64,000 nt of DNA from Candidatus Uhrbacteria bacterium RIFCSPLOWO2_01_FULL_47_25. GTDB taxonomy: Bacteria > Patescibacteriota > Patescibacteriia > GWA2-46-9. The translations under genes and the position numbers were made by a program. Shown piece after piece: positions 243 to 27,999 of the stretch (within the stretch, counting starts at the first letter, position 1; each line of letters opens with the position of its first letter). The notes below the pieces were generated by a model. That model made no database searches and had not been told where the DNA came from. It was given only the letters and a program-made list of their open reading frames with translations. The stretch covers positions 4,405 to 68,404 of the forward strand of contig MGEK01000023.1 in assembly GCA_001791325.1 (NCBI GenBank). Reading direction: 5' to 3'.

Positions 243-929
243 TTACAAAGAATGCCCACCGACCACCCTGTTAATATCAATCCAATCTTGTAAATCATTT
301 TGAGTGCTAACATACCCTTTGATATTTATTGCCGCACCCTTGTGGATACCAAGGTGTAGATGCTTTCGTTCATGATCTGTCTCATTGCTATACGCATTAC
401 CCAAAGCAGCGATTTTCTCTCCGGCGATAACTTCTTGACCCACTGAAACTGCAACACTGGCTAGGCGTACATGGCCATAAATAACTGTCACGTCCTGATT
501 GTCAATAACACATCCCTGCACAACAACCCCGCCGTAACCTGAAGCCCACTTTTTCATCAACAACGCCCCATCACAAATCGCATAGACCGGCACATCCTTG
601 TTTTGTTCATCAAAAAATGTTTCAAAATCAACACCTGTATGATAACCACTAAAACGCTCCGGTTGTACCGGTGAATTCTCTGGTGAAATTTTAATGCCAA
701 ACAGCTTTTTTGTAATACGCTTCAAGGCATCTGGCAACGGCCACCCTGACAATGCAGGAACACGTTCAGTTGGAGCTAACTCTGTGTTTTGAGTTATCGG
801 TGGTGAAGTCGTGGACAAAAGGCTCACATCTTGATCCCTGATGATCTCTTTTGGCTGATGATATGAATAGTATATAACCGCCGCCACTACAACGAAGAAC
901 AGTCCGAAAAAGATAAAAGATTTATACAT
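243..929 (-). CDS. M23 family (LytM-type) metallopeptidase, membrane-anchored
   Basis: HTGVDF, YGHV and HLHLG zinc-binding motifs typical of Peptidase_M23; N-terminal TM helix. Confidence 0.8.
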   Translation of the reverse strand: MYKSFIFFGLFFVVVAAVIYYSYHQPKEIIRDQDVSLLSTTSPPITQNTELAPTERVPALSGWPLPDALKRITKKLFGIKISPENSPVQPERFSGYHTGVDFETFFDEQNKDVPVYAICDGALLMKKWASGYGGVVVQGCVIDNQDVTVIYGHVRLASVAVSVGQEVIAGEKIAALGNAYSNETDHERKHLHLGIHKGAAINIKGYVSTQNDLQDWIDINRVVGGHSL

Positions 930-979
930 ACCTTTTTGTACGCATTTATGGTACCACAGTATAATTACTGCCGGAAATG

Positions 980-1447
980 TTACTGACCTTGAACCGGCAA
1001 TAATGATCTTATTTGAATAGACTCGGCGGTAATGCTGCCGTCGCTATTGGCAGTACCGTTCACCATCACTTGTTTGCCAACTTCTAAATCACCGGCACTG
1101 CCCTCGACAGTTTTGCCAATGTTGGTACTGCCCGAAAGAAAAATAATTTTGGAGCCGCCATCACGAAGCTTTATCGTGACGCTCTGGTCGTCCTTGCCGA
1201 TTATTTCTCCGTTGATAAATTCTCCGCCCGCCACATCCCTCCGACCGTTTGGACTACCATTGCGAAATTGCTGTATCATTTGCTGACGTTGTTCGGCAGA
1301 CATATTTTGTAAATTCTGAGAAGCTCCTACTCCGCGGCCTTGCGGTCTTTTACTTTCGGCGTACCTCATTCCGCCATAAAAAGCGCCACCCCCTATGATA
1401 ATAAGAACGGCTCCCGTGATGAGTATTTTGTTCATATATAAACTCAA
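980..1447 (-). CDS. hypothetical membrane-anchored/secreted protein
   Basis: N-terminal TM helix, Gly/Asn-rich C-terminal domain; no recognisable motif. Confidence 0.45.
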   Translation of the reverse strand: MSLYMNKILITGAVLIIIGGGAFYGGMRYAESKRPQGRGVGASQNLQNMSAEQRQQMIQQFRNGSPNGRRDVAGGEFINGEIIGKDDQSVTIKLRDGGSKIIFLSGSTNIGKTVEGSAGDLEVGKQVMVNGTANSDGSITAESIQIRSLLPVQGQ

Positions 1448-1463
1448 TAATAATTAAAATATT

Positions 1464-2687
1464 TTATTCATACCGCAATGCGTCAATAGGGTTTAACTTT
1501 GAAGCTCGCCGTGCGGGGTAATAACCGAAAACAATGCCGATCGCGGCGGACACGCCAAAAGCGAGCGCCACCGAACTCAAAGAAATAGTTGTGGCGATAC
1601 CTGCAAATTGTGTCACGGCCGAGGCTAAAATCCAGCCCAAAAGAATACCAAGACCTCCACCAATAAGAGTGAGCGTAACCGCCTCCGACAAAAACTGCCG
1701 ATTAATATCGCCGCGATGCGCGCCAATGGCTTTCCTTAACCCAATCTCGCGCGTTCGTTCGGTGACCGTGGTCAGCATCATATTCATAATTCCTATACCG
1801 CCAACCAACAAAGAAATGCCGGCGATAGAGGCCAGAAGAATAGTGAAGATGCCGGTCACGCTAGAAGCGGCGGCAACAATATCTGATTGATTAATCACCT
1901 GAAAATCAGCAAGTTGCTGATTAGCAATATTATGACGAGCCATAAGTAACGCCGTAATCTGCTGCTGAATTGCGCTCATGGTACTGGCGTCCTCGGCCTC
2001 AACACTAATCGTTGTAACATAATTGTCGCCCGCTAAAAACCTCTGGGCCGTACTTAATGGCACATACACAGCATCGTCAGGATTACTAAATCCACTGCCA
2101 CCCTTGGATTTAGTAACGCCAATCACTTTGAAATCTACTTTATTAATGCGAATTGTTTGGCCAATAGGATCAACGCCAGCGCCAAATAAATCACTCACCG
2201 TGGTTGGCCCAAGCACTGCTACCTTGGACAGACTCCTCACACTCTGATCAGTAATGAACGAACCGCTCGCAGATTTCACATTACGCACTTCGGCATACGA
2301 CGCGACTGTGCCAATTACAGACGTGTTAGTATTTTTTCCGCGTACAGTGATTTGATAACGACGAGATATTTCTGGCGCCACTGCTTTAGCTAGTGTGACT
2401 TCCTTAATAATAGCGTCCGCGTCTTCTTGCGTCAGCGTCTGGGCGCTTCCCCGTCCGCCTGACACCTGGCTACCGGGGCCGCGCTGGAACCCCGGCGTCA
2501 CGAGCACAAGATTTGAGCCAATTGATTGGATGCTTGATTCAATAGAACCCTGTGCTCCTTGGCCGATTGACACCATGGCAATAACCGAGCCAATGCCAAT
2601 CACAATGCCAAGTATAGTAAGGCTTGATCGCACCTTATTGACGACGATTGCCGCGTATGTTTCTTCAAATAGGTCACTAATCTTCAT
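1464..2687 (-). CDS. ABC transporter permease, MacB/FtsX family (probable start at internal Met MKISDLFE)
   Basis: MacB-type periplasmic domain followed by a C-terminal FtsX 4-TM region; the ORF-table start at 2771 overlaps the upstream ATPase by 77 nt; the internal Met at ~2687 resolves this. Confidence 0.8.
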   Translation of the reverse strand: MKISDLFEETYAAIVVNKVRSSLTILGIVIGIGSVIAMVSIGQGAQGSIESSIQSIGSNLVLVTPGFQRGPGSQVSGGRGSAQTLTQEDADAIIKEVTLAKAVAPEISRRYQITVRGKNTNTSVIGTVASYAEVRNVKSASGSFITDQSVRSLSKVAVLGPTTVSDLFGAGVDPIGQTIRINKVDFKVIGVTKSKGGSGFSNPDDAVYVPLSTAQRFLAGDNYVTTISVEAEDASTMSAIQQQITALLMARHNIANQQLADFQVINQSDIVAAASSVTGIFTILLASIAGISLLVGGIGIMNMMLTTVTERTREIGLRKAIGAHRGDINRQFLSEAVTLTLIGGGLGILLGWILASAVTQFAGIATTISLSSVALAFGVSAAIGIVFGYYPARRASKLNPIDALRYE

Positions 2688-2694
2688 AATAATT

Positions 2695-3375
2695 TTACCT
2701 TGTTTTTTCGTCGTTAATAATCTGGCCGTCGCGAATGTGAATAATTCTTTTGGCGTGCGCGGCCACATCACGTTCGTGAGTAATGAGCACTATGGTTCGT
2801 CCTTGTTTGTTTAAAGATTCAAAAGTGGCAAGAACCGCCTCGCCAGTCTTTGTGTCCAAATTGCCAGTCGGCTCATCCGCCAAAATAATTGCCGGATTAT
2901 TGACGAGTGCTCGGGCAATGGCCACTCTCTGTATCTGACCGCCCGAGAGCTGGTTTGATAAATGATTGTAATGCGATTCTTCCAAGTTCACGGCCGCCAA
3001 AGACTTCTTAGCGACCTCCTCTCGTCCCGACCGACTAATGCCGGCGTAAACAAGCGGCAAAGCTACGTTTCGGAGCACTGTTGCGCGCGGCAGGAGGTTG
3101 AAGGCCTGAAACACGAAACCGATTTTTTCCCTACGAATGTCAGCAAGTGCATCATCAGAGAGCTCCGCCACATTATGGCCATTAAGCAGATACTGACCAC
3201 TCGTCGGCGAATCCAGACACCCCAAAATATGCATCAATGTTGATTTACCAGAGCCCGATGGACCCATGATGGCTACAAATTCGCCGTTGGCAATGTTGAA
3301 CGACACACTCCGCAAGACGGTCGTCTCCTGGCCGCCATTAAGGTAGATCTTTGTGATACTCCGACACTCAATCAT
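2695..3375 (-). CDS. ABC transporter ATP-binding protein (MacB/LolD/FtsE-like)
   Basis: Walker A GPSGSGKST, ABC signature LSGGQIQRVAIARAL, Walker B ILADEPTGNLD. Confidence 0.9.
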   Translation of the reverse strand: MIECRSITKIYLNGGQETTVLRSVSFNIANGEFVAIMGPSGSGKSTLMHILGCLDSPTSGQYLLNGHNVAELSDDALADIRREKIGFVFQAFNLLPRATVLRNVALPLVYAGISRSGREEVAKKSLAAVNLEESHYNHLSNQLSGGQIQRVAIARALVNNPAIILADEPTGNLDTKTGEAVLATFESLNKQGRTIVLITHERDVAAHAKRIIHIRDGQIINDEKTR

Positions 3376-4139
3376 ACGTCTAGGAATTTCAACACGGCGT
3401 CCGCTATACCCCGCGCGGCTATCCGGGGCTGGGCAACGATGACTCGCTGATCCACGGGGCTCGTCAAAAACCCTGTTTCCAGAATAGCCGCCACAGTCAT
3501 CGGATGAACCGCATGCTCATAACGGCGCCAGTTGAAGGCGTAATAACCTCTCATATTACGAGTAACGTTAAAATCGAGCCTAAGACCAGTAGAGCGAGCA
3601 TACTCCGCTTCAAGAGTATCGACGAGGCTTCCCGCTCGGCCTGTTAGATCACGATGCGGTGCGGCAACCTTAAATCCTGAAACCTCCGAATTTACATTGC
3701 CATCGGCGTGGATGGCGATAAAGACATCCGCCCAGTACGCTGGCGGAATAGTGGACGGCAAAATATCAACTATTACTCCCTTCGCCTCCAGAAACTCTTT
3801 CGTCTCCTCGGCGATAGCCAAGTTAATTTCCCACTCGGCCTTGCCGCCACCACTTGCTCCGCCACCACGCTCCCGAAGTCGTTTGAGCTCATCGGGGAGT
3901 TCTTCGCGTTTCCAGTGTCCAACCTGCAACCCCACACGTGGCGGTCCGACAGGTCTTCGCCATGTTTCTAAATCTCCAAATCGTGACGGAACAGCCACAT
4001 TGATGTCGTCGAATAATTCAAACTCAACTTCCGTCGTTGAAACAGATTCACTTATTGACCCGCTACGGTGCGCGGCAGTATAACTAACCACCGCGACGCC
4101 AACGATAAGTACCACCACGATTCCAAAAAACGCCCGCAT
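3372..4139 (-). CDS. N-acetylmuramoyl-L-alanine amidase (Amidase_3 family), membrane-anchored
   Basis: Amidase_3-like core (IAIHADG, ETGFL); N-terminal TM; 4-nt overlap with the downstream ABC ATPase. Confidence 0.75.
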   Translation of the reverse strand: MRAFFGIVVVLIVGVAVVSYTAAHRSGSISESVSTTEVEFELFDDINVAVPSRFGDLETWRRPVGPPRVGLQVGHWKREELPDELKRLRERGGGASGGGKAEWEINLAIAEETKEFLEAKGVIVDILPSTIPPAYWADVFIAIHADGNVNSEVSGFKVAAPHRDLTGRAGSLVDTLEAEYARSTGLRLDFNVTRNMRGYYAFNWRRYEHAVHPMTVAAILETGFLTSPVDQRVIVAQPRIAARGIADAVLKFLDV

Positions 4140-6044
4140 CTACCTACCCCCTCCAACTCGGAAACCGCCAACCGGGAAAAGACTACCGCCTGAACGCTGT
4201 TGCGTTGTAGTATTACTGCTCTCTGAAGTAATGGTTTGCGTTACCACCTCTTCGCCTTCACGGATGTCACCAGAAACTTCTGTCACTGAATCGTTAGAAA
4301 GACCAACTTCGACCGAGCGGCGTTCCGGTGTACCATCTTTGAGCATTTCAACGTAGGATCCTTGCCCGTTTTGAGACTTCACAGCGCTACCCGTCACCAT
4401 CAACACATCTTGCCTGACGTCAGTAATGATTGCCGCGGACACGCTCATGCCCGGTTTAATGCGTTCATCTTGTGTATCAAAACCAATTTTTACGTTATAC
4501 GAAACCACTCCCTGACTAACTGTTCCTATTGTTTCTATTTCTACAACGTCGCCCGTGATAGTCAATCCTTGGACAGCGTCAAATGTTAAGGTCGCTTTTT
4601 GCCCAACCTGCACTTTAGCAACATCCACCTCGTTTAATGACACTTCAGCAATCTTTTGCTTCGCTATCAAAGTAGCAACCGCGGTTGAGGAAGACGCGGG
4701 GTCGCCGAGCTTTACGTTAAGCTTGGCGACAACCCCGGCGAGCGGCGCGCGAACGGTATAATCGGCGAGCTTCTGCCGCGCGTCAGCCAACGCATTCTCT
4801 CTTTGACGGATTGCCAATTCTTGAGTTTGTATGTCAAGAGAATCAGCACCGGCTTTAAGTTTTAAAAGCGAGACCTCTTTCTCTTTAACCGCCTGTTCAG
4901 CCGCGGACAAATCCAGAGGATTATTTTGATCCATCGCTTTGAGATCTCTATCCGCGCTAACAACAGCGTCTTTGTTATCTTGCAATGTCCTCTGAACAGC
5001 AAGAAGATTTGATAAATGTCCATTCACCTGGCCATTGTAGGTAGTGAGATTGGCGCGATACTCTGCCACTTTGCTGGCGACCTGCTGATAATCAGTGGCG
5101 TTACGCAACGTCCGCAGATCGGTCCAAGTATCAAAAAGGGTGGTTTGGCTTTTGGCGGCTTCCGTAACGCGCTTTGTAGTTTCAATCGTCTCCGTCAGCA
5201 ATACTTCAGTGACCGAACGCTCCGAAAATCGACTGGCAGTTTGGTAGCTCAATAAATTAACATTGTAAGCACTGCGCGCCGCCGAATAATCGTTCTCCGC
5301 GTAATTGATAAATGGCTGAATTTTAGTTCTATCATCGGTAGTATTGCTCAAAGTGTTGATAAGAGTGCTTGTGTTGATGTAACCGGAGCCGATTGATTTA
5401 TCCGCCTTACCGATTTCTTGACCATGAAGGATATCATCCAGTTTTGTCATGATTGTCGGCAAATCAAGAAAGGAGTTGGAAATTTCATTGAAAGCGTCTT
5501 CATAGGCCTTAGTGATGTTATCAAGCGCTTTCTGTTTGGACTCCTGCGCTTTCTCATAATCTGTCGTTTGCGAGAGTTTTAACTTCTCCAAATTATCCTT
5601 GGCGCTCACCAGAGCGTTTTCGGACTGAAGAATTGAAAGCGTATCAGCGGACTGTTTAAGTTTATCCAAAGAAAGTTTCGCGCTTTCCAAGTTGACACTG
5701 GCGTCACGCACGGTTTTTAAAGCATCACTGTCGTCAAGCTCAATTAATACGGAATCGGCGGCAACTTCTTTGCCTGTCTGCACGGCTACCCTGACTACCG
5801 TACCAGAGGCTTTCGGCTTCACATCAATCTGGTTTGAACTTGCCACCTGCCCCGTGCCGCTCACTGAAACGATGAGCGTTCCTCTCTCAACTGGCGCGGT
5901 AATATACTGCGGCAAAACTTCTTTGGCAGTAAATTTTTGATAACCATAATAGCCGACGCCGGAAATAATCAAGAGAGCCACAAAAGTTTGTGCCTTATGA
6001 GCCCTAAGGTATGAAAAAAATTTTGTAGAAATTCTATTGTCCAT
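4140..6044 (-). CDS. HlyD-family periplasmic adaptor (membrane fusion protein, MacA-like) with very long coiled-coil
   Basis: N-terminal TM, about 300 aa of coiled-coil, C-terminal beta-barrel/lipoyl-like region; ORF-table start at 6119 overlaps the upstream gene, so the internal Met at ~6044 is more likely. Confidence 0.7.
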   Translation of the reverse strand: MDNRISTKFFSYLRAHKAQTFVALLIISGVGYYGYQKFTAKEVLPQYITAPVERGTLIVSVSGTGQVASSNQIDVKPKASGTVVRVAVQTGKEVAADSVLIELDDSDALKTVRDASVNLESAKLSLDKLKQSADTLSILQSENALVSAKDNLEKLKLSQTTDYEKAQESKQKALDNITKAYEDAFNEISNSFLDLPTIMTKLDDILHGQEIGKADKSIGSGYINTSTLINTLSNTTDDRTKIQPFINYAENDYSAARSAYNVNLLSYQTASRFSERSVTEVLLTETIETTKRVTEAAKSQTTLFDTWTDLRTLRNATDYQQVASKVAEYRANLTTYNGQVNGHLSNLLAVQRTLQDNKDAVVSADRDLKAMDQNNPLDLSAAEQAVKEKEVSLLKLKAGADSLDIQTQELAIRQRENALADARQKLADYTVRAPLAGVVAKLNVKLGDPASSSTAVATLIAKQKIAEVSLNEVDVAKVQVGQKATLTFDAVQGLTITGDVVEIETIGTVSQGVVSYNVKIGFDTQDERIKPGMSVSAAIITDVRQDVLMVTGSAVKSQNGQGSYVEMLKDGTPERRSVEVGLSNDSVTEVSGDIREGEEVVTQTITSESSNTTTQQRSGGSLFPVGGFRVGGGR

Positions 6045-6810
6045 TGTATTGATGAAAAAATGGAGGTGGCGCTGGGCGACGATTACCACGGACTCGCCAA
6101 GGGTTTTCTTCGGAATCAATTCTCTTAATACCTAGCGCTTGCACGGTATCGTCATCACGTTCTCCAAAGACGACCACTCGGTCGCCCGGCTGAAGATCTA
6201 ACCCGAACGGAAAACGGGTTTCTGGCGTTACCACAATCCTCAATACTTCGTCGCGACGAGTCTTAATCGCGAGCCCTTGCTCGGTCACTTCTGTCACTTC
6301 ACCAATATGAACGTTTCTAAAACGAGGCGCGCCATATTCACGGTAAAACGAACCAGCAAACGGCAGTCTATCGCGTTCAGCCCGCTCTAAGAGCCGTGAG
6401 TGGAAGGTGGTTTTTATAACCAAAAATCCGCCAAGCAAAGCAAGCGCAATTACCATCAGTGCTGAAATGAGAAGAGGGCGCCGGTAGGCGAAGGCATAGT
6501 GTCGCACCAAAAGCTCAAGGATAATTATAAAAACTATGGCGAGAAGAATGAGAAGCTTTGGCAAAGACCAGAGGAAAACGGCAAATCCGTGCCAGCCAAA
6601 GGCCGGCATAAACCACACCCCGCTTGCTCTCAAAGCAAACATGGCTAAGCTCACAACAAAGAGCAGAGTTAACCCAGCCAGGGCAATGCCGGCGACCACA
6701 AGCGTGGCTTTGAGCATAAAATGCCAACGCGGACGCATAGTCACTTCACCGCCCCGAATGCGTTCTAGCACGGCTTCGTGAATGGATTTTTTGTGTGGTT
6801 TATCATTCAT
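6034..6810 (-). CDS. putative anti-sigma factor / membrane protein
   Basis: 4 predicted TM helices; overlaps the 3' end of the ECF sigma gene by 8 nt (typical sigma/anti-sigma arrangement). Confidence 0.45.
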   Translation of the reverse strand: MNDKPHKKSIHEAVLERIRGGEVTMRPRWHFMLKATLVVAGIALAGLTLLFVVSLAMFALRASGVWFMPAFGWHGFAVFLWSLPKLLILLAIVFIIILELLVRHYAFAYRRPLLISALMVIALALLGGFLVIKTTFHSRLLERAERDRLPFAGSFYREYGAPRFRNVHIGEVTEVTEQGLAIKTRRDEVLRIVVTPETRFPFGLDLQPGDRVVVFGERDDDTVQALGIKRIDSEENPWRVRGNRRPAPPPFFHQYNGQ

Positions 6811-7372
6811 AAAACGGGTGTAATTTTTTATAAACTTTGCGAAGCATCTCTTTGCCTCGCTTTAATCTAACGCCAACGGTGGAGACTGGTAATTCCATAA
6901 TGTCGCTAATTTGCTGATAATTTAACTCCTCAAAAAAATATAAAACCAATGGTTCGCGATACTTTGGATCCAAGTCATGAAGACACTCCTCAAGCACTGC
7001 TCGTAGTTCCTTTTCATTAAAATCTCTATCAGCACGGTCGGAAGAAACGGGGTGAGGGAATATGGTATCAGGATCAAAGAAAAGCAGAGGCGCGTGGCGA
7101 CGTTTTTTGATGGCGTTCAAAAACTCGTTGTGCGCAATGCGGTATAGCCACGGCGAAAATCTGCGCCGCGTGTTGAATCCTTGAATGTTAATGTAGGCCT
7201 TTATAAAAACCTCCTGCACGAGATCTTCCGCGTCCTCAAAACCAAAAAGAAATCTTCGGGCATAACGCAACATCTTTTCCTCATATCGTTCCATTAGGAG
7301 GGAGAATGACTCGGTATCGCCGCCCTGCACACGCGCCGCTATTTCTTCATCGGTATCAGTCAAATTCGGCAT
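6803..7372 (-). CDS. RNA polymerase ECF-type sigma-70 factor
   Basis: Sigma70 region 2 (LVQEVFIKAY) and region 4 (LNYQQISDIMELPVSTVGVRL) motifs. Confidence 0.85.
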   Translation of the reverse strand: MPNLTDTDEEIAARVQGGDTESFSLLMERYEEKMLRYARRFLFGFEDAEDLVQEVFIKAYINIQGFNTRRRFSPWLYRIAHNEFLNAIKKRRHAPLLFFDPDTIFPHPVSSDRADRDFNEKELRAVLEECLHDLDPKYREPLVLYFFEELNYQQISDIMELPVSTVGVRLKRGKEMLRKVYKKLHPFYE

Positions 7373-7510
7373 ACCCCGTTAGAAGTCCTAAGAAGATAAA
7401 ATTCCTTTAAGAATTTTATCTTCTATGGCAGCAACGATGCTTAATAGATTCATAGACCGTATCATTGCCTAAGATACATTAATTATACTATGTCAGACTT
7501 CTAATGGGGT
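7373..7510. repeat. TIR element copy A (15-bp terminal inverted repeats CCCCGTTAGAAGTCC / GACTTCTAATGGGGT; internal hairpin AGAAGATAAAATTC-loop-GAATTTTATCTTCT)
   Basis: Seen directly; TIR ends 1 nt before the ATG of the sigma factor gene; distal TIR flanked by a 10-bp direct repeat AATTATACTA (7481-7490, 7511-7520). Confidence 0.8.
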
Positions 7511-7861
7511 AATTATACTACACTTTAACCATGTTTTTATTTCATCAAATGAAAGAGGCCGGCCGTTATCCAAACAACGGTCGGCCCCTGCTGTGTTTCA
7601 CAGCACCACTGCCAGCCCCTCGCTGATGGTAAGAGATAGCGCCCCTTGCACTTCATCAAACGCAGGTGATCGATCGAAAACAAACTCAAGCCGCACCACT
7701 CCTCCAACTCGGAACGACCTAAGAGAAGTAATGTTGATCCCCTTGGCAAGGAAAACACCGACTTTTAATTAATCCTTCAACCGTCTGCCGCTTTTATTCC
7801 ATTTCCGATAGAAACACGGGTGATAGCTATAATGACAACACCCCTTTCTTCTTTTGGGCTA

Positions 7862-8758: not shown

Positions 8759-8887
8759 TTTTCCTCCTTTATGTTTTCTCTGTTGCTGCGGTTATACCAA
8801 TTAAACTAACCACCATTTTTATACCTGCCACTGTGCTTTTATGTTTGGCCGCCTCCTTTTTGTCAAAGAGCAAATTCTTCTCCAAGA

Positions 8888-8912
8888 AACAAAAAACCCT
8901 TCCGGAGAAGGG
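8888..8912 (-). terminator. Rho-independent terminator-like hairpin (CCCTTCCGGAGAAGGG + U-run on minus strand)
   Basis: Perfect 6-bp GC stem followed on the minus strand by UUUUUUGUUU; lies in a ~700 bp gap without credible ORFs. Confidence 0.5.
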
Positions 8913-9410
8913 ATCGATCGTGGTGTTGTTGATTTATGTAAAAAAGTAGATTCAAATAAAATTAACCACAGCCAATCTCTTCTCCGAAGAGGTTGCTGTG
9001 ATGATAAGTCTGATTTTGGACCAATGTAACCATAATGCAATCATTGTAATTTAATGATTATTTTCTGTCAAGCGGCGGCATATAACAGCCCTGCCACCTT
9101 CTGTCGCAATTGCGACAAAAGGTGGTGATAAAACCAGCCCCGCTTGGCGAGGCTGATAATCCTGCAACGCAGTGATGGAATGTTTGAACTCTAGCAAGCG
9201 TTAATTTGTCTTTTAACGTTCCAGCTCCTCGTTGGCGACGATCTGTACTTTAGCGTTAATGGTGGAGCCCCACGGGTTTACCCATGTCACCTCTCCACAC
9301 CTTCTCGCGCATTCATCTACCCCCCGCCGCGGCGGGGGGCTTTCTGCGAAGGAGGGTAAATTACTACAGTACTTTGCCATCGACAGCCCCCAGCACGATA
9401 ATAGACCATG

Positions 9411-9445
9411 CATAAAGCCCCCGCCATGGGCGGGGGCTTTATGGA
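9411..9445 (-). terminator. GC-rich hairpin 20 nt downstream of HU stop (AAAGCCCCCGCC-ATGG-GCGGGGGCTTT)
   Basis: 12-bp perfect stem; the U-tail is partly inside the stem, so an intrinsic-terminator function is uncertain. Confidence 0.4.
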
Positions 9446-9464
9446 GTTTTTAAAGCTTTAAAAA

Positions 9465-9746
9465 CTAAAGTACTGCCTCTTTGGCGGCCTTGGCCACACG
9501 GAATTTGACTACAGTTTTGGCTGGAATCTGAATTTCCGCCCCAGTAGCAGGATTTCGTCCCATGCGGGCTTTGCGGTTAACCTTGACAAGCTTACCAATA
9601 CCCGGAACCACAAACTCGCCGTTGCGCTTGACCTCTTGATAGGCAAGAGTGGTCATTTCCTCCATTAAGGTAGCTACCTCTTTCTTGGCCACACCCACCT
9701 TACTGGCCAGCGCCTCAATAATCTGCGCCTTTGTCATTTTAGCCAT
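9465..9746 (-). CDS. hup: DNA-binding protein HU
   Basis: Full-length HU/IHF family signature (GFGKF-like arm RNPATGAEIQIPA). Confidence 0.9.
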   Translation of the reverse strand: MAKMTKAQIIEALASKVGVAKKEVATLMEEMTTLAYQEVKRNGEFVVPGIGKLVKVNRKARMGRNPATGAEIQIPAKTVVKFRVAKAAKEAVL

Positions 9747-10130
9747 ACTATAAATTTAAAGAATTAAATGAAGCCACTGGCTTCACCCCGCCAAGGGCGG
9801 GGTTTATTAAATCCATATCGCTTCATCCCTACGCTCACGCGCAGGATATTCGCGGGGATTTAATAAAATGGTACGACCTTTATAATGTTAATAACATATT
9901 TAATACTAAGGAAAAGTATACACGAGAGCCACTAATAGGGCAACACCCCCCGGACAGGACCAAATTCTAAGCTCTAAGTACGAATTTCTAAACAAATTCC
10001 AAGTCCCAAATTCTAATAACTCCAATAAGTTTATAATTTGTGATTTCGGATTTGTGATTTGCTTAGCCTGCCTGCCGCGGGCAGGTATTTAGAGATTAGG
10101 CATTCGAAATTACAACAAAAACCAACATTC

Positions 10131-10817
10131 TCACTCTTTATAACTGCGCGGGGAAACCACTACCACATACTCACCCGGCGGAGGATTAGACGACAGCCGA
10201 GCGGCCAATGATATGGCCGAACCGCGATACAGGGTTTCAAATTGCTTGGTCAGCTCACGCGCGACGAGTATCAACCGCTCTGGATCGCGCTCGGACAAGG
10301 CCGTCAAGGCCTTGACTATGCGGTGCGGCGATTCATAAAAGACGACGCTACCTGAAGTCGCGGCAACTTGATTAAAAAAATTTTGGCGCCCCTTCTTATG
10401 CGGCGGAAATCCCATAAATGTAAATTCGTCCATCGGAAAACCGCTGACCGACGCGGCCACTACCAAAGCGCACGGCCCGGGAACGGGCACGACGCGCAGC
10501 TCTTCGCCAAAACGCCGCATGGCTTCGGCAACTAGTTTGCCGCCCGGATCGTTTATGCCGGGCGTGCCAGCGTCACTAACTAAGGCCATGTCATGTTTAA
10601 CCAATAAATCAAGAATGGACTTCAGGCGCGCCAACGAAGTATGGTGGTGATAAGAAATCAGTTGAGGCGAAATACCAAGATGGGACATCAAGATTCTTGT
10701 TCGTCTTGTATCTTCAGACAAAACAATAGGCACACTTGAAAGCACTTGCCGCGCTCGCTCGCTAATATCTTTTAAATTACCAATAGGAGTAGCAACGATG
10801 TAAAGCGTGAAAGCCAT
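10131..10817 (-). CDS. rsmI: 16S rRNA (cytidine1402-2'-O)-methyltransferase RsmI (tetrapyrrole methylase fold)
   Basis: LYIVATPIGNLKDIS N-terminal motif and overall length typical of RsmI. Confidence 0.8.
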   Translation of the reverse strand: MAFTLYIVATPIGNLKDISERARQVLSSVPIVLSEDTRRTRILMSHLGISPQLISYHHHTSLARLKSILDLLVKHDMALVSDAGTPGINDPGGKLVAEAMRRFGEELRVVPVPGPCALVVAASVSGFPMDEFTFMGFPPHKKGRQNFFNQVAATSGSVVFYESPHRIVKALTALSERDPERLILVARELTKQFETLYRGSAISLAARLSSNPPPGEYVVVVSPRSYKE

Positions 10818-10872
10818 AAGCTATAAGCCGTAAAACAATAAAATCAAAAAGGCAAAAGTACAAGTTCAAGGT

Positions 10873-10932
10873 CAAAAGCTTTTGAATTTTGCATTGTAAT
10901 TTTGACTTCTAACTTTTGAATTTTGACTTCAA
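10873..10932. repeat. 60-bp repeat copy 1 (CAAAAGCTTTTGAATTTTGCATTGTAATTTTGACTTCTAACTTTTGAATTTTGACTTCAA)
   Basis: Near-identical to 11448-11507; overlaps the stop codon and last 7 codons of gene 10909..11403. Confidence 0.85.
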
Positions 10933-11403
10933 CCGGCGCCTGTATATCTCTAGATAAGCCAACACCAGCAAACTGTAGTTGACTATCATAAATGTCGGAT
11001 CGGCCCAATTAATGGCGTTTACTTTCCATGATGAGAGGGGAAACAAGAAAGGTGTCGGAAAAAATTCGTAAGTGTGCGTACCAATATCAATCAAAATATG
11101 CAGACCCCAGGCGGCAAGCGGCCACCAAATTTTACCCGAACGCCATAGCGCCACTAAGCCAAAAACGACTAAAAAAATTACGGCACTATGTGTGTAATTG
11201 TATATAAAAGAAACGTACAATGGTATGGATTCTACCTCCGGACGGCCAACGCCAAAAGTTCCAAATAAAATTCTGGAGATCATAAACGGACCAAAAGAAA
11301 ATAAATCAGGGGCCACGCCAAAAAATATCGCCCACCACCGATCAGCCGCGCGCTGTCGCTGATAAATAACATTGGCCCAAAGTCCATGAGCGAGAGTGTC
11401 CAT
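10909..11403 (-). CDS. hypothetical polytopic membrane protein
   Basis: 4-5 TM helices; C-terminal LKSKFKS tail encoded by the 60-bp repeat. Confidence 0.5.
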   Translation of the reverse strand: MDTLAHGLWANVIYQRQRAADRWWAIFFGVAPDLFSFGPFMISRILFGTFGVGRPEVESIPLYVSFIYNYTHSAVIFLVVFGLVALWRSGKIWWPLAAWGLHILIDIGTHTYEFFPTPFLFPLSSWKVNAINWADPTFMIVNYSLLVLAYLEIYRRRLKSKFKS

Positions 11404-11447
11404 GACAATAATTCAAAAGTTAAAATGTAAAAGGCAAAAGTGTAAGT

Positions 11448-11507
11448 CAAAAGCTTTTAAATTTTGCATTGTAATTTTGACTTTTAACTTTTGAATTCTG
11501 ATTTCAA
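11448..11507. repeat. 60-bp repeat copy 2
   Basis: 55/60 identity with 10873-10932; overlaps the stop codon and last 7 codons of trxB. Confidence 0.85.
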
Positions 11508-12470
11508 ATTCTCAAGGTATTCTTCGGCTTCCATGGCCGCGGCACAGCCCCGACCGGCCGCAGTTACGGCCTGGCGGTATTTTTGATCCTCAACATCGCC
11601 AGCCACAAATACTCCGGCGATGTTCGTATGCACGCCGTCAGGACTGATAATATAGCCTGCTTCGTCAAGACCAAGCTCTCCACGAAATGGTTCAGTATTG
11701 GGTTTGTGTCCGATAGCGACGAAGACTCCTTGACAATTAATCGTTTTAATCTCGCCTGTTGTTATGTTTTTAAGACGCACCCCGGAAACCATGCTGGCGC
11801 CCAAAACTTCAGTAACTTCCATTGGCACACACCAAAATATCTTAGAGTTGGCTCGGGCCCTATCTTGAAGAATTTGCTGGGCGCGAAAGGACTCCCTCCG
11901 ATGAACTATCGTAACTTGACTGGCCAGCTTGGCTAAATAAATAGCCTCCCGCATAGAGCTGTCTCCCCCGCCCACCACAACCACTTCCTTATTCTTGAAA
12001 AAATAACCATCGCAAACAGCGCAACTGGATACGCCATGCCCTATTAGGCGCTGCTCTGATGGCAATCCTAACCAACGGGCGCTGGCGCCGGTGGCCACAA
12101 TAACGCTCTGCGCTTTCAGTTCCTGGTCGTGCATTGAAACAGTAAAAGGGCGCTCTTTGAAATTCACAGCCACAACACTATCACCAATAAAACTAGTACC
12201 AAATCGTTCCGCCTGACGCTTCATCCGGTCCATTAATTCAGGACCTTGCAATCCTTCAGGGAAGCCGGGGAAATCTTCAACATCAGTAGTCAATGTTAAT
12301 TGGCCACCCTCTTCATGTCCGGTAATGACCAGAGGCGACAAACTAGACCGCGCCGCATAAATAGCGGCGGTTAAGCCGGCGGGTCCAGAACCAATGATAA
12401 TTAATTTATAAACTTCGTTGACCATAATATTAACATACCACGAATATAGAGCCAGTCCATTATCAAACAA
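11484..12470 (-). CDS. trxB: thioredoxin-disulfide reductase
   Basis: FAD motif GSGPAGLTAAIYAAR, redox-active CAVCDG, NADPH GGGDSS motif. Confidence 0.9.
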   Translation of the reverse strand: MFDNGLALYSWYVNIMVNEVYKLIIIGSGPAGLTAAIYAARSSLSPLVITGHEEGGQLTLTTDVEDFPGFPEGLQGPELMDRMKRQAERFGTSFIGDSVVAVNFKERPFTVSMHDQELKAQSVIVATGASARWLGLPSEQRLIGHGVSSCAVCDGYFFKNKEVVVVGGGDSSMREAIYLAKLASQVTIVHRRESFRAQQILQDRARANSKIFWCVPMEVTEVLGASMVSGVRLKNITTGEIKTINCQGVFVAIGHKPNTEPFRGELGLDEAGYIISPDGVHTNIAGVFVAGDVEDQKYRQAVTAAGRGCAAAMEAEEYLENLKSEFKS

Positions 12471-12494
12471 GCTTACGTTCGGTCTTGATACTGA

Positions 12495-13556
12495 TCATCG
12501 CAACCCGCTCCGTATGAATGATGGCTCTAAAACCTTGAACACACTAACCGGTTTTAAAATTCGCCCCGTTGATTCCAAAAACTCTAACAGTCTTTCGCCG
12601 CTGCCATAAAGAGAAGTAATATCATTGCCGTAAGTGAAAGCAATGGCATTGCCGGCAAAATTCAGCAGCTCAATACCACGAAATTCATCTTCTAAATTAG
12701 CCAATGTTACCCCCGACGCAATGGCGGCAATGGCCATAACTTCCTGCCTTTCCGCTTCGCCGTGTTCAAAATAATCAATAACATCAAACCAAGCTCTCAA
12801 AAAAGCGGCAACTTTTTTCGGATGAGATAAAACATATTCTTCGCGAAAGGCGATGACGTTTGAAATGAGCCCCGGGGTTTCGGCTGAAGAGAAAAGAAGA
12901 TGACTTTGCCGCCGCGCGACAGCCAAACTCAAATAAGGTTCAACGCTCACTACGGCATCAACGCGATGAGCCAAAAAAGCGCGCACCGCGCCTAATGGTT
13001 CTTGCGGCACGATAATCACGTCATCTTCAGACAACGCGGCGCGTCTTAAGGCCTCTTGAAAAAGGAGGTGCCCAAAGCCTTGAACCGGAACAGCGACGCG
13101 ACGTCCTCGCAAATCCTGGAGCGATTGAATATCCGGCACCGCCACAATACCATCAGCCCCAGATGAATAATCAATACTGGCCACTACTTTTATTGGCAGC
13201 CCCTCCGCTGTCAAGCGCAATGGTTCAGATAGCACAAAAGATCCGCCATCAGCTTCTCCTTGACGCAATGCTTCAACGGCGCGCTCATAATTACCACCGA
13301 CATCAATAATTTTCACTTTAAGGCCATACTTTTTAAACAAACCCCTTGATTCAACCGCATAAATAAGTCGTGAGGCTGGCCAGGAAGTTACAACAAAATT
13401 CAAATCAACCGGTTCTAAACGACGATACAGGACTTGCCAACCAAAAACCAAGGTCAGTATCACGATGACGGCAACCGCGGCGATGTTAATCCGTTTGAGC
13501 ATGGACTTAGACAATATCTTCCCGTTGTTCGCGGAAAAAGCCGAGCACATCCTCAA
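12495..13556 (-). CDS. membrane-anchored substrate-binding protein, NMT1/SsuA-like family
   Basis: N-terminal TM plus periplasmic-binding-protein type II fold resemblance; weak. Confidence 0.5.
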   Translation of the reverse strand: MRMCSAFSANNGKILSKSMLKRINIAAVAVIVILTLVFGWQVLYRRLEPVDLNFVVTSWPASRLIYAVESRGLFKKYGLKVKIIDVGGNYERAVEALRQGEADGGSFVLSEPLRLTAEGLPIKVVASIDYSSGADGIVAVPDIQSLQDLRGRRVAVPVQGFGHLLFQEALRRAALSEDDVIIVPQEPLGAVRAFLAHRVDAVVSVEPYLSLAVARRQSHLLFSSAETPGLISNVIAFREEYVLSHPKKVAAFLRAWFDVIDYFEHGEAERQEVMAIAAIASGVTLANLEDEFRGIELLNFAGNAIAFTYGNDITSLYGSGERLLEFLESTGRILKPVSVFKVLEPSFIRSGLR

Positions 13557-15150
13557 ATACTATCAAAAACGATTTGAATGGCGCTTCCAATAAATAGTCA
13601 AATAAATACAGAAAGACATTGAATTTAGCTGAAGTTAAAGAAACAAACTGGCCGACTCGCAAGATAGGTAAAGAGAAAAAATTAATGAGCACCAATAAAA
13701 TATTTTCCCGCTGACTGCTCACAAAAAGATCGCGCACTGGTTGACGAATACGAATGGCAAAAAAAGAAACAACGGTTAAAAAGAGCAGAAAAAATCCTGT
13801 GCCAATAAAGGTGAAGTGTAAACGATGCAGGATTAAAATAATTCCGCCAAAAGTTATGGTGAAGGTAAGAAGATAAAAAAGCGAAAATACACTAACCAAA
13901 AAAACTGACGAACCGACCGGATTTTTAACTTTAGAAAATACCCGGCGTTCTCCTCCATAAAGCAGCTCTATCATTACCCTAACAACTTCTCGGGTATTTG
14001 TCCGACCCGGAAAACGGGTGGTCGCCGTCAATAAAAACATCAAGCTAGGAGGAAAAACCGTGTTAATAACTATGGGGGTAGCAAGCACGGCGCCATAGAT
14101 AAATTGTTCGGCCGGGGCTTCGGCTATTAAAGCCAAGATAATCTTGGTTAAAAAAATATATACGGTAGCACGAACGGCGCTACGGTACAAACGACGACGG
14201 GTGCCGCGATAATATTTTTGACAAATCTCCTCTAGCTCGGATCGTAATCTTGGTTCGTTCAATAAAAGCTCACGAGCTCCGCCGGGGTATTTCATGGCGA
14301 TATCTTTCAAGGCATGAAAAACAATGACGCGAGACTTTAAGGCGCGATATAGTTTTAAACCAGCGGGATGCCGCAAGGCCTGTTCAGTATTGAAATACTG
14401 CCGAGAAAGCGATGGCCATAAAGACGACATATCCTCGGCGCGTCGTGAGCGCCAATCCGGCATTTGCTTTAATAATAAAAAAAAGTGTAGTGTCTGAGGA
14501 TCAAAAGCAAACAAAGCACGATAACAAGCGATAAACACCTGTCTTTCTTTCTCTTCCGAACCCAACGACCAATCCATAAGCGGGTCGTCTTTAATGACGT
14601 AACTAACCATAAGATTCACTAGAGCCTGATGCTCTGGAGAAGGAGCGAGTTCGTCATCAAGCTCTGCCGAAAGTAAACCCAACAACCAAGCCTTAGCTGT
14701 CTTTTTTTCGTTCGATTTATCCTGCTCCATGAGATTGAAAAGAACAGCATAACGATCAAAGATGGTCTGCACTTTGGGCACAATCGCTTCGGGAATGGAA
14801 TCATTCCTTAAGTATTGCGCCTGCACTAGTTCAATTAAAAAAGGACGAGCGAACTCATGCCAGTCGCCACGGTCTTCAAGCTGACGTCTCACGATCCGTT
14901 CAATGGCATGCCGTCTTAATAGGTGCTCTTCACGATAATCCAGGCTATAACGTAATTTTTCATATAATGCCGCCGCTCCAGAAATCACGCTGGAAACGTG
15001 AATGTAAGAACCTTCCAATGTTGAGACTGAAGACTGTTTCTGCGAGAGATTGGCTAAAAACGCCTGAACCGGCGGCGTCAGTGTTTTGACTGAAATCGTT
15101 GCCTCTTTGGCACCTAAATTCTTTGGTTTGCTCAATGCGGAGATGGGCAT
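13507..15150 (-). CDS. hypothetical protein with soluble N-terminal half and polytopic C-terminal membrane half
   Basis: Long ORF; ATG lies 1 nt after TIR element B; 50-nt overlap with the downstream gene. Confidence 0.5.
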   Translation of the reverse strand: MPISALSKPKNLGAKEATISVKTLTPPVQAFLANLSQKQSSVSTLEGSYIHVSSVISGAAALYEKLRYSLDYREEHLLRRHAIERIVRRQLEDRGDWHEFARPFLIELVQAQYLRNDSIPEAIVPKVQTIFDRYAVLFNLMEQDKSNEKKTAKAWLLGLLSAELDDELAPSPEHQALVNLMVSYVIKDDPLMDWSLGSEEKERQVFIACYRALFAFDPQTLHFFLLLKQMPDWRSRRAEDMSSLWPSLSRQYFNTEQALRHPAGLKLYRALKSRVIVFHALKDIAMKYPGGARELLLNEPRLRSELEEICQKYYRGTRRRLYRSAVRATVYIFLTKIILALIAEAPAEQFIYGAVLATPIVINTVFPPSLMFLLTATTRFPGRTNTREVVRVMIELLYGGERRVFSKVKNPVGSSVFLVSVFSLFYLLTFTITFGGIILILHRLHFTFIGTGFFLLFLTVVSFFAIRIRQPVRDLFVSSQRENILLVLINFFSLPILRVGQFVSLTSAKFNVFLYLFDYLLEAPFKSFLIVFEDVLGFFREQREDIV

Positions 15151-15151
15151 A

Positions 15152-15308
15152 CCCCGTTAGAAGTCCCGCCCATTCGGCGGGCAGGCCTCAGAAGACAAAA
15201 TTCTCTTAAGAATTTTGTCTTCTATGGTAACTAGAATATTTAGTTGGTTGGTAGATTGTATCATATATAAAAGATTGGATATTGTGCTAAGTCAGACTTC
15301 TAACGGGG
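15152..15308. repeat. TIR element copy B (CCCCGTTAGAAGTCC ... GACTTCTAACGGGG)
   Basis: Perfect 14/15-bp TIRs; internal hairpin AGAAGACAAAATTC-loop-GAATTTTGTCTTCT; ends 1 nt before the ATG of gene 13507..15150. Confidence 0.85.
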
Positions 15309-15490
15309 CACAACATTGATGGAATATAGAATGTGGAATATGGAATATAGGTATTAATTGTTGGGGAATTCTGATTTTCATAAACTTGATTCTAAATTCT
15401 ATATTCAATATTCTGCATACAACACATAGTATATCATACCTTCACGCTTTCATTATACATCATAACATGGTCAAGACACTAAATGATTGA

Positions 15491-18832: not shown

Positions 18833-18855
18833 AAAGGCAATCTTCTAGCGGGGTT

Positions 18856-18991
18856 CCCCCGTTAGAGGGTCTGGGCGGAAAAAGTTTTAGCTAAAACTTT
18901 TTCCGCTAACTTAAACAGAACAGTATTAATAATAAGACGGCCAATGGTCATAATAGTAGGTAACCAAGATAATGACGACCCTCTAACGGGG
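18856..18991. repeat. TIR element copy F with co-varied termini (CCCCCGTTAGAGGGTC ... GACCCTCTAACGGGG) and internal 15-bp perfect hairpin GCGGAAAAAGTTTTA-GC-TAAAACTTTTTCCGC
   Basis: Termini differ from the consensus (AAGTCC to AGGGTC) but stay mutually complementary; the right TIR supplies the TAG stop and last 3 codons (EPR) of mreB. Confidence 0.75.
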
Positions 18992-20035
18992 TTCCTGCGC
19001 GGATGACACCACAATCTCCTTCAAAAGTTCGGGATTGTCTAACAGCAAGCCGGTGCCGCGCACTACGCAAGTCAGAGGATCGTCAGCTACCCGCACCGGT
19101 ATTTGCGTCGCCTCGGCAATGGCTACACTGATATTTCTCAAAAGTGCGCTACCGCCGGTAAGCACGATACCGCGTTCATAAATATCAGCCACTAATTCAG
19201 GTGGGGTTATTTCCAAAATATCCTTAATATGATCAATGATGGTTTTTACTGACCTAGTCATAGATTGACGAATTTGAGTATCATTCACAACCACTTCTTT
19301 GGGCAGTCCGGAAACAAGATCGCGCCCGCGCATAGTGGTTTCCAGTGGCGTCGCCAAAGGACTAGCTGAACCAATCTGAATTTTAATATCTTCGGCCACT
19401 CTTTCTCCCAAAAGCAAATTAAACTGTTCCCGAGCGTATTGCACGATATTCTGATTAAGTTCATCTCCCGCCAAACGCAAAGATTTGGCTGTCACAATAC
19501 CGCCCAAAGAAATAACAGCAATCTCGGTCGTGCCTCCGCCAATATCCACAACCATGCTGGCCGTCGGTTCCTGCACTGGCAAGCGCGTGCCAATGGCGGC
19601 AGCCATTGGTTCTTCAATCAAATAGACGGAGCGCGCCCCGGCTGAGCGCACCACATCTTCAACGGCTTTCTTTTCCACTTCCGTTATTTCTGTGGGGATC
19701 GCAATAATCACGCGCGGACGCGGCAAAAGAGTAAATGCCTCGCGATGCACCCGATCAATAAAATAGGTGAGCATCTTCTCGGTCACTTCAAAATCGGAAA
19801 TAATGCCATCTACCAGAGGACGCGTAGCCACAATATGGGGCGGTGTCTTGCCAATCATGCGCTCGGCTTCACGCCCCACGGCCACAATCTGATCCGTGCG
19901 GGTATTCACGGCCACGACTGATGGCTCGTTGATAACAATACCGCGATCTTTGACATAAATCAAAGTATTCGCTGTCCCCAAGTCAACGCCAATATCGCGA
20001 GAAACGCGACCAAATATATTCTTTAACACACTCAT
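18983..20035 (-). CDS. mreB: rod shape-determining protein MreB
   Basis: Actin-fold motifs DLGTANT, VVDIGGGTTE; full length. Confidence 0.95.
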   Translation of the reverse strand: MSVLKNIFGRVSRDIGVDLGTANTLIYVKDRGIVINEPSVVAVNTRTDQIVAVGREAERMIGKTPPHIVATRPLVDGIISDFEVTEKMLTYFIDRVHREAFTLLPRPRVIIAIPTEITEVEKKAVEDVVRSAGARSVYLIEEPMAAAIGTRLPVQEPTASMVVDIGGGTTEIAVISLGGIVTAKSLRLAGDELNQNIVQYAREQFNLLLGERVAEDIKIQIGSASPLATPLETTMRGRDLVSGLPKEVVVNDTQIRQSMTRSVKTIIDHIKDILEITPPELVADIYERGIVLTGGSALLRNISVAIAEATQIPVRVADDPLTCVVRGTGLLLDNPELLKEIVVSSAQEPR

Positions 20036-27940: not shown

Positions 27941-27999
27941 TAATTGATCGTTGTATTATTTAAAAATTAGAAATTATATTTATGGATTTTCTAACGGGG

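Follow-up and report, generated by a model that had tools for sequence, protein, structure and literature searches.

The locus described here raises the question whether a compact group of envelope genes in a bacterium of the candidate phyla radiation (CPR, Patescibacteria) encodes a device for the activation of cell-wall hydrolases or an export pump that hydrolase genes have joined. Bacteria of this group are ultra-small, mostly uncultured episymbionts, and their envelope biology is hardly known. The DNA under study is a 64,000-nucleotide stretch of the groundwater organism Candidatus Uhrbacteria bacterium RIFCSPLOWO2_01_FULL_47_25 (contig MGEK01000023.1, positions 4,405 to 68,404 of the forward strand; hereafter, the window), in which eight consecutive open reading frames (ORFs) lie on the minus strand at positions 243-7372. 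All eight were found with the coordinates, order and domains given in a preliminary description of the window, which had taken the cluster for a hydrolase-activation machine rather than an efflux pump. That conclusion goes beyond the evidence: the permease is assigned to the MacB type and is accompanied by an adaptor, and docking or regulatory domains were not found in the hydrolases. The reading that we consider modestly probable is a co-regulated pump, namely an envelope-stress exporter operon of the MacAB/YknXYZ type in a monoderm CPR bacterium, controlled by an extracytoplasmic function (ECF) sigma factor, into which wall hydrolases were recruited.

Gene content and organisation

The genes are listed in the order from the sigma factor to the M23 peptidase, followed by the element that marks the 3' end of the operon (TM, transmembrane; ABC, ATP-binding cassette).

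6803-7372, minus strand: ECF-type sigma factor, 189 aa (Sigma70_r2 and r4_2, without r3)
6034-6810, minus strand: multi-TM protein, presumed anti-sigma factor, whose C-terminal DUF5666 domain is extracytoplasmic (weak DUF5666 match, E 1.3e-3)
4140-6044, minus strand: MacA/YknX-like membrane-fusion adaptor, 634 aa, counted from the ATG of the public annotation (HlyD_D23, HlyD_3, lipoyl half-motif, RND_mfp)
3372-4139, minus strand: membrane-anchored N-acetylmuramoyl-L-alanine amidase, predicted active (Amidase_3, Pfam)
2695-3375, minus strand: ABC ATPase of the MacB/LolD/FtsE class (ABC_tran, E 1.3e-33)
1464-2687, minus strand: MacB-type permease, 407 aa, with TM1, full periplasmic core, and FtsX domain with TM2-4 (MacB_PCD and FtsX)
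980-1435, minus strand: small membrane-anchored DUF5666 protein, last gene of the conserved module (DUF5666, E 3e-5)
243-929, minus strand: M23 metallopeptidase, membrane-anchored and predicted to be active, added to the operon in this species only (Peptidase_M23, E 1e-13)
184-199, no strand assigned: GC hairpin CCCCGCCGCAGCGGGG, seen in the sequence between the stop codon of the M23 gene and the end of a convergent 253-aa gene

The genes are tightly packed and several of them overlap, as the preliminary description had said: from sigma to M23, the intergenic gaps are -8, -11, 0, -4, +7, +28, and +50 nt, that is, -11 to +50 nt across the eight genes. Because of this spacing, and because a terminator scan of the operon gave no convincing internal terminator, a single transcript from sigma to M23 is consistent with the data, and the eight genes probably form one compact, co-transcribed envelope cluster headed by the ECF sigma factor. 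The GC hairpin at 184-199 was not called in the terminator scan. The convergent 253-aa gene beyond M23 runs off the window; it is present in the loci of the same species (L161-L167; related loci are designated by L and a number). The identical 8 kb was found in at least six independent assemblies, with exact protein matches in Candidatus Uhrbacteria (Parcubacteria group) GW2011_GWA2_46_9, in RIFCSP genomes, and in GCA_001790975.1, and the public names of all eight genes are generic only. Over the 64-kb window as a whole, there are 55 ORFs of 150 aa or more, 53 of them on the minus strand, and neither a tRNA gene nor an Rfam family at gathering score was detected.

Adaptor, ATPase, and permease

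The adaptor has the lipoyl, beta-barrel, and membrane-proximal domains together with the alpha-hairpin of a membrane-fusion protein; it scored 120 bits with TIGR01730 (cut-off, 94.9), and its precomputed Pfam matches include Beta-barrel_YknX and YknX_C. In the AlphaFold model (mean predicted local distance difference test score (pLDDT), 81.5), residues 106-427 are helical (about 320 residues), with an ascending helix of about 100 residues, a helical tip of about 100, and a descending helix of about 108, so that the alpha-hairpin is predicted to measure roughly 150 Å plus the helical tip. The top Foldseek matches were MacA in MacAB-TolC (9qgy, 5nik). The hairpin barrel of Spr0693 of Streptococcus pneumoniae is 56 Å long (PMC5768738), and the claim of an unusually long coiled-coil in the adaptor was thus borne out. 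The best 120 adaptor homologues, which include proteins from Uhrbacteria, Falkowbacteria, Adlerbacteria, and Komeilibacteria, are all 577-701 aa long with at least 89% query coverage; long adaptors are, as judged from these homologues, the rule in this group.

The ATPase has intact Walker A (GPSGSGKS), signature (LSGGQ), Walker B (IILADE), and H-loop (THE) motifs and is MacB-like (NF007826, E 2.5e-77). In the permease, MacB_PCD is covered over positions 1-207 of 207 (E 2.7e-51) and is followed by the FtsX domain (E 1e-22), and the MacB model NF007826 was matched at E 1.4e-74 over its positions 249-646. The FtsX equivalog models reached only E 3.9e-5 to 4.4e-4, or about 20-23 bits, against cut-offs of 225-255. 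Of the label MacB/FtsX-type used before, the first half therefore stands, in that the protein is MacB-type and has an FtsX domain, and the second does not, the FtsX-specific models being far below cut-off. An FtsX-type permease working with no adaptor, as in FtsEX, is not what was found here, where the adaptor gene lies inside the operon; on its domain architecture, the permease is a full MacB-type protein with a MacA-like adaptor and not an FtsX-type one. The predicted function of the three proteins is ATP-dependent export.

Hydrolases

In the amidase, the zinc-binding and catalytic residues H75, E102, H144, and E221 are invariant among 25 homologues and align with the AmiA motifs. Its model consists of an N-terminal TM helix, a low-confidence linker of about 40 residues, and a confident Amidase_3 domain (pLDDT 89), for which Foldseek returned CwlV, CwlD, AmiA, and LytH with probability 1.00, LytH ranking first by target-normalised TM-score (0.74). 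The 44-residue blocking/interaction-helix domain of AmiA/B/C is lacking (36 query residues stand opposite 70 AmiA residues in the profile alignment), and the model has no extra helix between H144 and E221. The amidase family of Patescibacteria has a 27-residue insert between H75 and E102 (a helix at 83-91 and a Gly-rich loop), which is absent from typical Amidase_3, and a semi-conserved short motif (S/T-E-x-x-F/Y-E or GAPPY) was seen in the linker after the TM helix (residues 38-50). The insert or the linker motif might serve in regulation or in the binding of a partner. For the amidase P0001, which is 99% identical, a look-up by exact sequence gave no contig.

The M23 peptidase (51.8 bits with Pfam; cut-off, 28.7) has the motifs H97-TGV-D101 (HxxxD), H153 in GHV, and H190-L-H192 (HxH); because these catalytic motifs are intact, it is predicted to be an active endopeptidase and not a degenerate activator like EnvC. 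Its N-terminal region is Pro-rich in sequence and without heptad character. A coiled-coil docking domain was found neither in the model of the amidase nor in the sequence of the M23 peptidase.

Synteny of the pump genes

Presence or absence of a gene was judged with tblastn and phmmer at E<=1e-3 to 1e-5, on contigs many of which, among those from metagenomes, are short. Over about 170 related loci, the conserved unit is a regulator, DUF5666, adaptor, ATPase, permease, and DUF5666; this core was seen in L002, L003, L016, L081, L084, L085, L088, L114, L168, and L169. Of the 11 genome loci with the permease, 9 have a DUF5666 gene after it, and the same is seen in many of the metagenome loci. L167 (98.6% nucleotide identity) belongs to the same species as the window and has the same eight genes. 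L168 belongs to a sister species with 78-82% nucleotide identity to the window, and its proteins are 76% (sigma), 63% (anti-sigma), 83% (adaptor), 87% (ATPase), and 88% (permease) identical to those of the window; it has neither the amidase nor the M23 gene. In the preliminary description, a lack of the hydrolase genes in orthologous loci was named as a sign of chance juxtaposition and as grounds to reject its proposal; for this nearest orthologous locus outside the species, such a lack is what was found. Neither gene is present in L169 and L170 (adaptor 60% identical), and in L169 a cupredoxin gene was seen after DUF5666.

A metagenome scan with the permease alignment returned 80 loci. The closest permease orthologues among them (60-69% identity; L081, L084, L085, L088, L090, and L114) have sigma, long adaptor, ATPase, permease, and DUF5666 and no amidase, and an amidase gene was present in only one of the 80 (L103, a metagenome contig), where it is placed after the permease. 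In the neighbour-joining permease tree, which carries no support values, modules with the amidase before the ATPase (window, L016, and L002/L003) are interspersed with amidase-less ones, and the nearest neighbour of the window permease is that of the amidase-less L168.

Synteny of the hydrolase genes

In a scan with the amidase alignment, one genome per species was used; 314 loci were confirmed and the best 80 (L001-L080) were analysed. The amidase is embedded in the module in 7 of the 80 (L001, L002, L003, L016, L021, L022, and L030), and a MacB permease lies within 8 kb in 12; in about 68 of the 80, none does. The order of the window (adaptor, amidase, ATPase, permease, DUF5666; type A) recurs in L002, L003, L016, and, partially, L021, and on the contigs that are long enough (L002, L003, and L016), an ECF sigma factor, a small TM protein, and a separate DUF5666 protein are upstream. 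In type B (DUF5666, adaptor, ATPase, permease, amidase, DUF5666; L022 and L030), a Penicillinase_R (BlaI-type) protein is upstream; L001 has the type B order from the adaptor onward. In type C (L043 and L065), the amidase gene lies a short way upstream of the two-component system at the head of the module, and in three further amidase loci the module is 5-7 kb away. If genomes of about 1 Mb with 1-3 modules are assumed, 1.6-5% of the loci would be expected to be linked by chance; a rough binomial calculation gave p<=6e-4 for 12 of 80 within 8 kb and much lower values for the embedded cases, the loci being phylogenetically non-independent. On this estimate the amidase adjoins MacAB-type modules more often than chance allows. 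The association of amidase and ABC genes proposed in the preliminary description is seen in these loci; in L168 and most of the close permease orthologues, the amidase is absent.

In the neighbour-joining amidase tree (no support values), the window amidase groups with those of L002, L003, and L016 in one clade; next to it, inside a larger clade that also includes four unlinked amidases, are L022 and L030 of type B. Taken together with the synteny, the tree suggests that one amidase lineage was kept with the module over about 58-64% amino-acid divergence and was repeatedly lost. Unlinked amidases (for example, L008, L017, L034, and L050) often have as neighbours OmpR-type two-component systems and a secreted alpha/beta hydrolase (S9/S33-like), and also a small coiled-coil protein, DUF7282 proteins, and a Cu-ATPase. 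Taken with the cupredoxin gene of L169, these neighbours hint at a setting of envelope or metal stress.

The M23 gene is beside the module in this species only (L161-L167). It is absent from all 80 metagenome permease loci and from all 80 amidase loci, and it was found in 0 of about 165 related loci outside the species, so that the part assigned to a co-transcribed M23 peptidase in the machine is not upheld. Its orthologues elsewhere are in four unrelated contexts, with ABC-2 transporters, a sigma/DUF5666 pair that heads a different operon, and nucleotide-metabolism genes among their neighbours. The M23 gene is, by its distribution, a recent and species-specific neighbour of the module. Members of the Amidase_3 and of the M23 family are both common across Patescibacteria, in most cases at other places in the genome. 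Since L168 lacks both genes, the closest permease orthologues lack the amidase, and M23 is found in no locus outside the species, the hydrolases appear to be optional and not obligatory parts of the machine.

Regulators and DUF5666 proteins

The sigma factor (110.7 bits with TIGR02937; cut-off, 42.9) has regions 2 and 4 only, as is expected of the ECF type; its best named match is SigW-like, below the cut-off of that model. The following gene, which overlaps the sigma gene by 8 nt, encodes a protein with several TM segments and a cytoplasmic N-terminus of only about 30 aa, named a DUF5666 protein in UniRef. In L016, DUF5666 is a protein of its own, with which the C-terminal half can be aligned (E 2e-4); no similarity was found to the small TM protein encoded there at the corresponding position. 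We presume it to be an anti-sigma factor from the position of its gene and its membrane topology only. Searches of the PDB sequences with this protein and with the small DUF5666 protein gave nothing significant.

Depending on the lineage, the module is headed by an ECF sigma factor, a two-component system, or a protein with a Penicillinase_R (BlaI-type) domain; three different regulators of extracytoplasmic signals at this position fit an inducible stress module. The cassette of sigma and the anti-sigma::DUF5666 fusion adjoins different envelope operons and thus behaves as a portable sensor module. In L173 (2955-4297), it heads an FMN_bind/ApbE/RnfD-like operon. In L078 (5931-8759), the sigma (62% identical) and the anti-sigma::DUF5666 gene (35%) directly precede a SHOCT protein and then the amidase, with no pump; this link suggests that the amidase belongs to the same stress regulon.

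Interpretation and alternative explanations

In a co-regulated exporter operon, a dimer of the MacB-type permease would be energised by the separate ATPase and coupled to the MacA/YknX-like adaptor, of which the predicted hairpin of about 150 Å with its tip would be long enough to carry a substrate from the membrane surface through the wall. The pump would be flanked by two membrane-anchored DUF5666 proteins, one of them fused, in this species, to the putative anti-sigma protein. A membrane protein with a DUF5666 ectodomain might sense an extracytoplasmic signal, upon which the sigma factor would be released, the operon transcribed, and a membrane- or wall-active compound or peptide expelled by the pump. 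The amidase and the M23 peptidase, as stand-alone hydrolases made together with the pump, may remodel peptidoglycan during stress or around the adaptor. Several points weigh against this picture. The operon itself is deduced from gene spacing, and DUF5666 is a domain without known function. The presumed anti-sigma factor matched no anti-sigma entry in Pfam, NCBIfam, or PDB. No ECF-type promoter was called by eye, the only promoter-like boxes being sigma-70-like TATAAT boxes. Finally, the linkage of the amidase to the module across a wide divergence and at two positions hints at more than casual co-regulation.

The hydrolases could be explained in an opposite manner, as the targets of an FtsEX-like mechanotransmission device that activates the co-encoded amidase, the M23 peptidase, or both and transports nothing. 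Control of hydrolases by type VII ABC systems is established for FtsEX-EnvC-AmiA/B (PMC7668044, PMC10268282) and for YbbAP-TesA (PMC12654888). The amidase gene interrupts the module in the window and in L002, L003, L016, and L021, and it comes behind the permease gene in L001, L022, L030, and L103; the embedded amidases cluster in the amidase tree; many cellular Amidase_3 enzymes need a partner, and those of LytH-ActH and CwlD-GerS, whose partners are unrelated, are among the top structural matches; and the 27-residue insert or the linker motif could be a regulatory handle. The permease, however, includes the MacB periplasmic core in full and is accompanied by an adaptor of the hexamer type, with FtsX models matching only at E>=4e-5, a coiled-coil domain for docking is missing from both hydrolases, the amidase is without a regulatory domain of the AmiA type, the M23 peptidase is catalytically intact and never syntenic outside the species, and the sister species and most orthologous modules have no amidase. 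Since three defining features of FtsEX and the hydrolase genes of the nearest orthologue are missing, activation of this kind is largely unsupported, and we regard it as improbable. A related possibility, which we hold to be about equally doubtful, is that in a subset of Patescibacteria a pump with a giant wall-spanning adaptor is physically coupled to Amidase_3, either gating or positioning the amidase or having its channel cut by it; this would be FtsEX-like control on a different scaffold, with the DUF5666 proteins as sensors or accessories.

At the other extreme, the hydrolase genes might be purely juxtaposed, as housekeeping genes of a compact and mostly single-strand genome, with no functional meaning beyond read-through transcription. 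M23 fits this, being adjacent in this species only and having orthologues in four unrelated contexts; about 85% of the amidase orthologues lie away from a MacB module, and with 53 of 55 ORFs on the minus strand, adjacency on the same strand comes cheaply. For the amidase, the counts stand against it (12 of 80 within 8 kb and 7 embedded, against the 1.6-5% expected with an assumed genome size and non-independent loci), as do the two insertion positions with a third same-strand arrangement, the clustering of the embedded copies in the tree, and the tie to the same sigma/anti-sigma pair in L078. We consider juxtaposition, with no functional link of the amidase at all, unlikely, while giving it appreciable weight. 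Flagella and type II-IV secretion systems use dedicated lytic enzymes to pass the wall, and the amidase, here also the M23 peptidase, might likewise open the peptidoglycan for a hexameric adaptor tube of about 20 nm. Such a role would suit the type A amidase, which directly follows the long-adaptor gene (with a 0-nt gap in the window) and is membrane-anchored on a flexible linker of about 40 residues, and a hairpin of about 150 Å with its tip would have to cross the wall; but equally long adaptors have no adjacent amidase in L081, L084, L085, L088, L114, L168, and L169, and in types B and C the adaptors are shorter (378-478 aa) and an amidase is still nearby. The chance that space for the adaptor is what the hydrolases provide therefore seems slim. 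The module might, lastly, be a dedicated secretion system (type-I-like or a bacteriocin exporter) for a peptide or protein, possibly directed against the host or competitors, given that it is widespread and conserved in Parcubacteria, that enterotoxin, bacteriocins, and SDP are among the exports of MacB-family pumps (PMC5768738), and that CPR bacteria are episymbionts (PMC11623550). No conserved cargo or precursor-peptide gene was found beside the module, the only small conserved genes being those of the membrane-anchored DUF5666 proteins, and control by a stress-type sensor fits detoxification at least as well; a dedicated secretion system is accordingly an improbable account.

Comparison with known systems

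YknWXYZ of Bacillus subtilis is part of the sigma-W regulon and an exporter of the SDP toxin (PMC4887032, PMC3498285), and Spr0693-0695 of S. pneumoniae confers resistance to LL-37, its adaptor having been proposed to tunnel the substrate into the wall (PMC5768738). The predicted pump shares with both systems (YknWXYZ and Spr0693-0694-0695) a separate ATPase, a 4-TM MacB-type permease with a large extracytoplasmic domain, a YknX-type adaptor, and the lack of an outer-membrane partner, and with YknWXYZ also the control by an ECF sigma factor. It differs from both in the adaptor (a helical region of about 320 residues against the 56-Å barrel in Spr0693), in the flanking DUF5666 proteins, one of them fused to the presumed anti-sigma factor, and in the amidase and M23 genes inside the unit; unlike in YknWXYZ, there is no homologue of YknW (Yip1). 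E. coli MacAB-TolC is alike in its adaptor, which is the best structural match, in a permease with MacB_PCD and FtsX domains, and in a MacB-like ATPase, but here there is neither TolC nor an outer membrane, the ATPase is unfused, the hairpin is 2-3 times longer, and the regulator is different.

With FtsEX-EnvC-AmiA/AmiB (and also FtsEX-PcsB, -CwlO, and -RipC), the cluster has in common a type VII ABC system accompanied by hydrolases, an Amidase_3 protein, and a protein of the M23/LytM fold. The features proper to the FtsEX systems, that is, an adaptor-less FtsX with a smaller ectodomain, coiled-coil docking, the blocking/interaction-helix domain of AmiA/B through which EnvC activates, and the degenerate LytM domain of EnvC, are all lacking here. 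LytH-ActH of Staphylococcus aureus also contains a membrane-anchored Amidase_3 and is a precedent for control by a membrane-protein partner, but there is no ActH-like (rhomboid/TPR) gene here. E. coli YbbAP-TesA (PMC12654888) is likewise an ABC system of the MacB type and is functionally tied to a periplasmic hydrolase encoded alongside it; it differs in that the hydrolase is a thioesterase/lipase acting on extracted hydrophobic compounds and not on the wall, and in having no adaptor.

We found no description of the module in CPR bacteria in the literature searched, where DUF5666 appeared in six unrelated papers only. The present analysis defines a widespread module of Parcubacteria, annotated so far in generic terms, which consists of a sensor, DUF5666, a MacA/YknX-like adaptor with a predicted hairpin of about 150 Å, a MacB-type ABC system, and DUF5666. 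Genes of peptidoglycan hydrolases are its facultative passengers, with one amidase subclade recurrently captured. If the amidase is physically linked to the pump, type VII ABC systems would have a second and independent means of controlling wall hydrolysis; otherwise, the cluster would be a pump for detoxification or export under ECF control in a minimal genome, and a caution against reading a mechanism from a single gene order.

Upstream region and inverted-repeat elements

The following features were assigned upstream of the sigma gene.

7373-7510, minus strand: terminal-inverted-repeat (TIR) element A with arms ACCCCATTAGAAGTC / GACTTCTAACGGGGT and an internal perfect hairpin (five copies align)
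7512-7520 and 7482-7490, minus strand: two TAGTATAAT boxes, -10-like, candidate promoters (from the sequence)
7551-7587, minus strand: GC-rich hairpin with a T-rich tail, GGCCGACCG...CGGCCGGCC TCTTTC, likely terminator of the relic upstream gene (sequence and predicted fold; kept in L168)
7598-7765, minus strand: relic 3' end (ACT-like C-terminus) of a prephenate dehydrogenase (PDH) gene, upstream boundary (in-frame match to the PDH of L168)

That TIR element A heads the operon, as previously described, was confirmed: its right arm ends one base before the ATG of the sigma gene. The predicted RNA fold of the element has -50 kcal/mol (z = -6). One TAGTATAAT box is just before the left arm and the other is inside the element, and both are identical in L168, where TIR A is also present upstream of sigma. 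For the comparison of promoters, only the sigma factors of L168 and L078 are close enough; the upstream region of L168 is nearly identical, and the spacer in L078 is only 38 nt. The motif is absent from the first 160 related loci, and the element is therefore lineage-specific and outside the conserved module.

The PDH relic corresponds to the last 55-59 codons or so of the PDH gene of L168, with about 88% identity as compared with 78-82% in coding regions; 15 of the 23 substitutions are at third codon positions, there is a weak ACT hit, and no start codon is found in the window. Two other candidates in this region were rejected. A non-coding RNA at the block of about 240 nt at 7525-7770 (fold z = -3; nothing in Rfam at E<=10) was discarded in favour of the in-frame PDH 3' end, and a 73-aa ORF at 7537-7758 is spurious, its frame having a stop codon in L168. 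With HisG upstream in the window and PDH upstream in L168, the operon lies at the breakpoint of a rearrangement.

TIR A belongs to a family of palindromic elements of about 130-160 nt, with arms ACCCCGTTAGAAGTC / GACTTCTAACGGGGT, an internal perfect hairpin, and a TATAAT-like box, for which there was no match in Rfam. The motif occurs 14 times in the window against 1.5 expected. Besides single arms (213-223, 18844-18854, 27990-28000, and 41129-41139), at least five full copies were found (7373-7510, 15151-15309, 18856-18992, 29532-29671, and 57262-57390). An ATG comes directly after the right arm TCTAACGGGGT (TCTAATGGGGT in copy E) in four of these five, and in three of the four (7372, 15150, and 29672) it is the start of a listed ORF with 150 aa or more. 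In L168, the slot of the amidase of the window is occupied by a 254-nt non-coding spacer (5819-6072) with a 13-nt inverted repeat, GCCCCGCACCTTT ... AAAGGTGCGGGGT, and a TATAAT-like box; the repeat resembles the TIR design with different arms, and its right arm abuts the ATG of the ATPase gene. These observations suggest that inverted-repeat elements mark or mediate gene gain and loss at start codons.

Past the left end of the window, L161 has, after the convergent 253-aa gene, a second module of long adaptor (558-580 aa), ATPase, and MacB permease (8762-13565), of which the adaptor is 24% and the permease 41% identical to that of the first.

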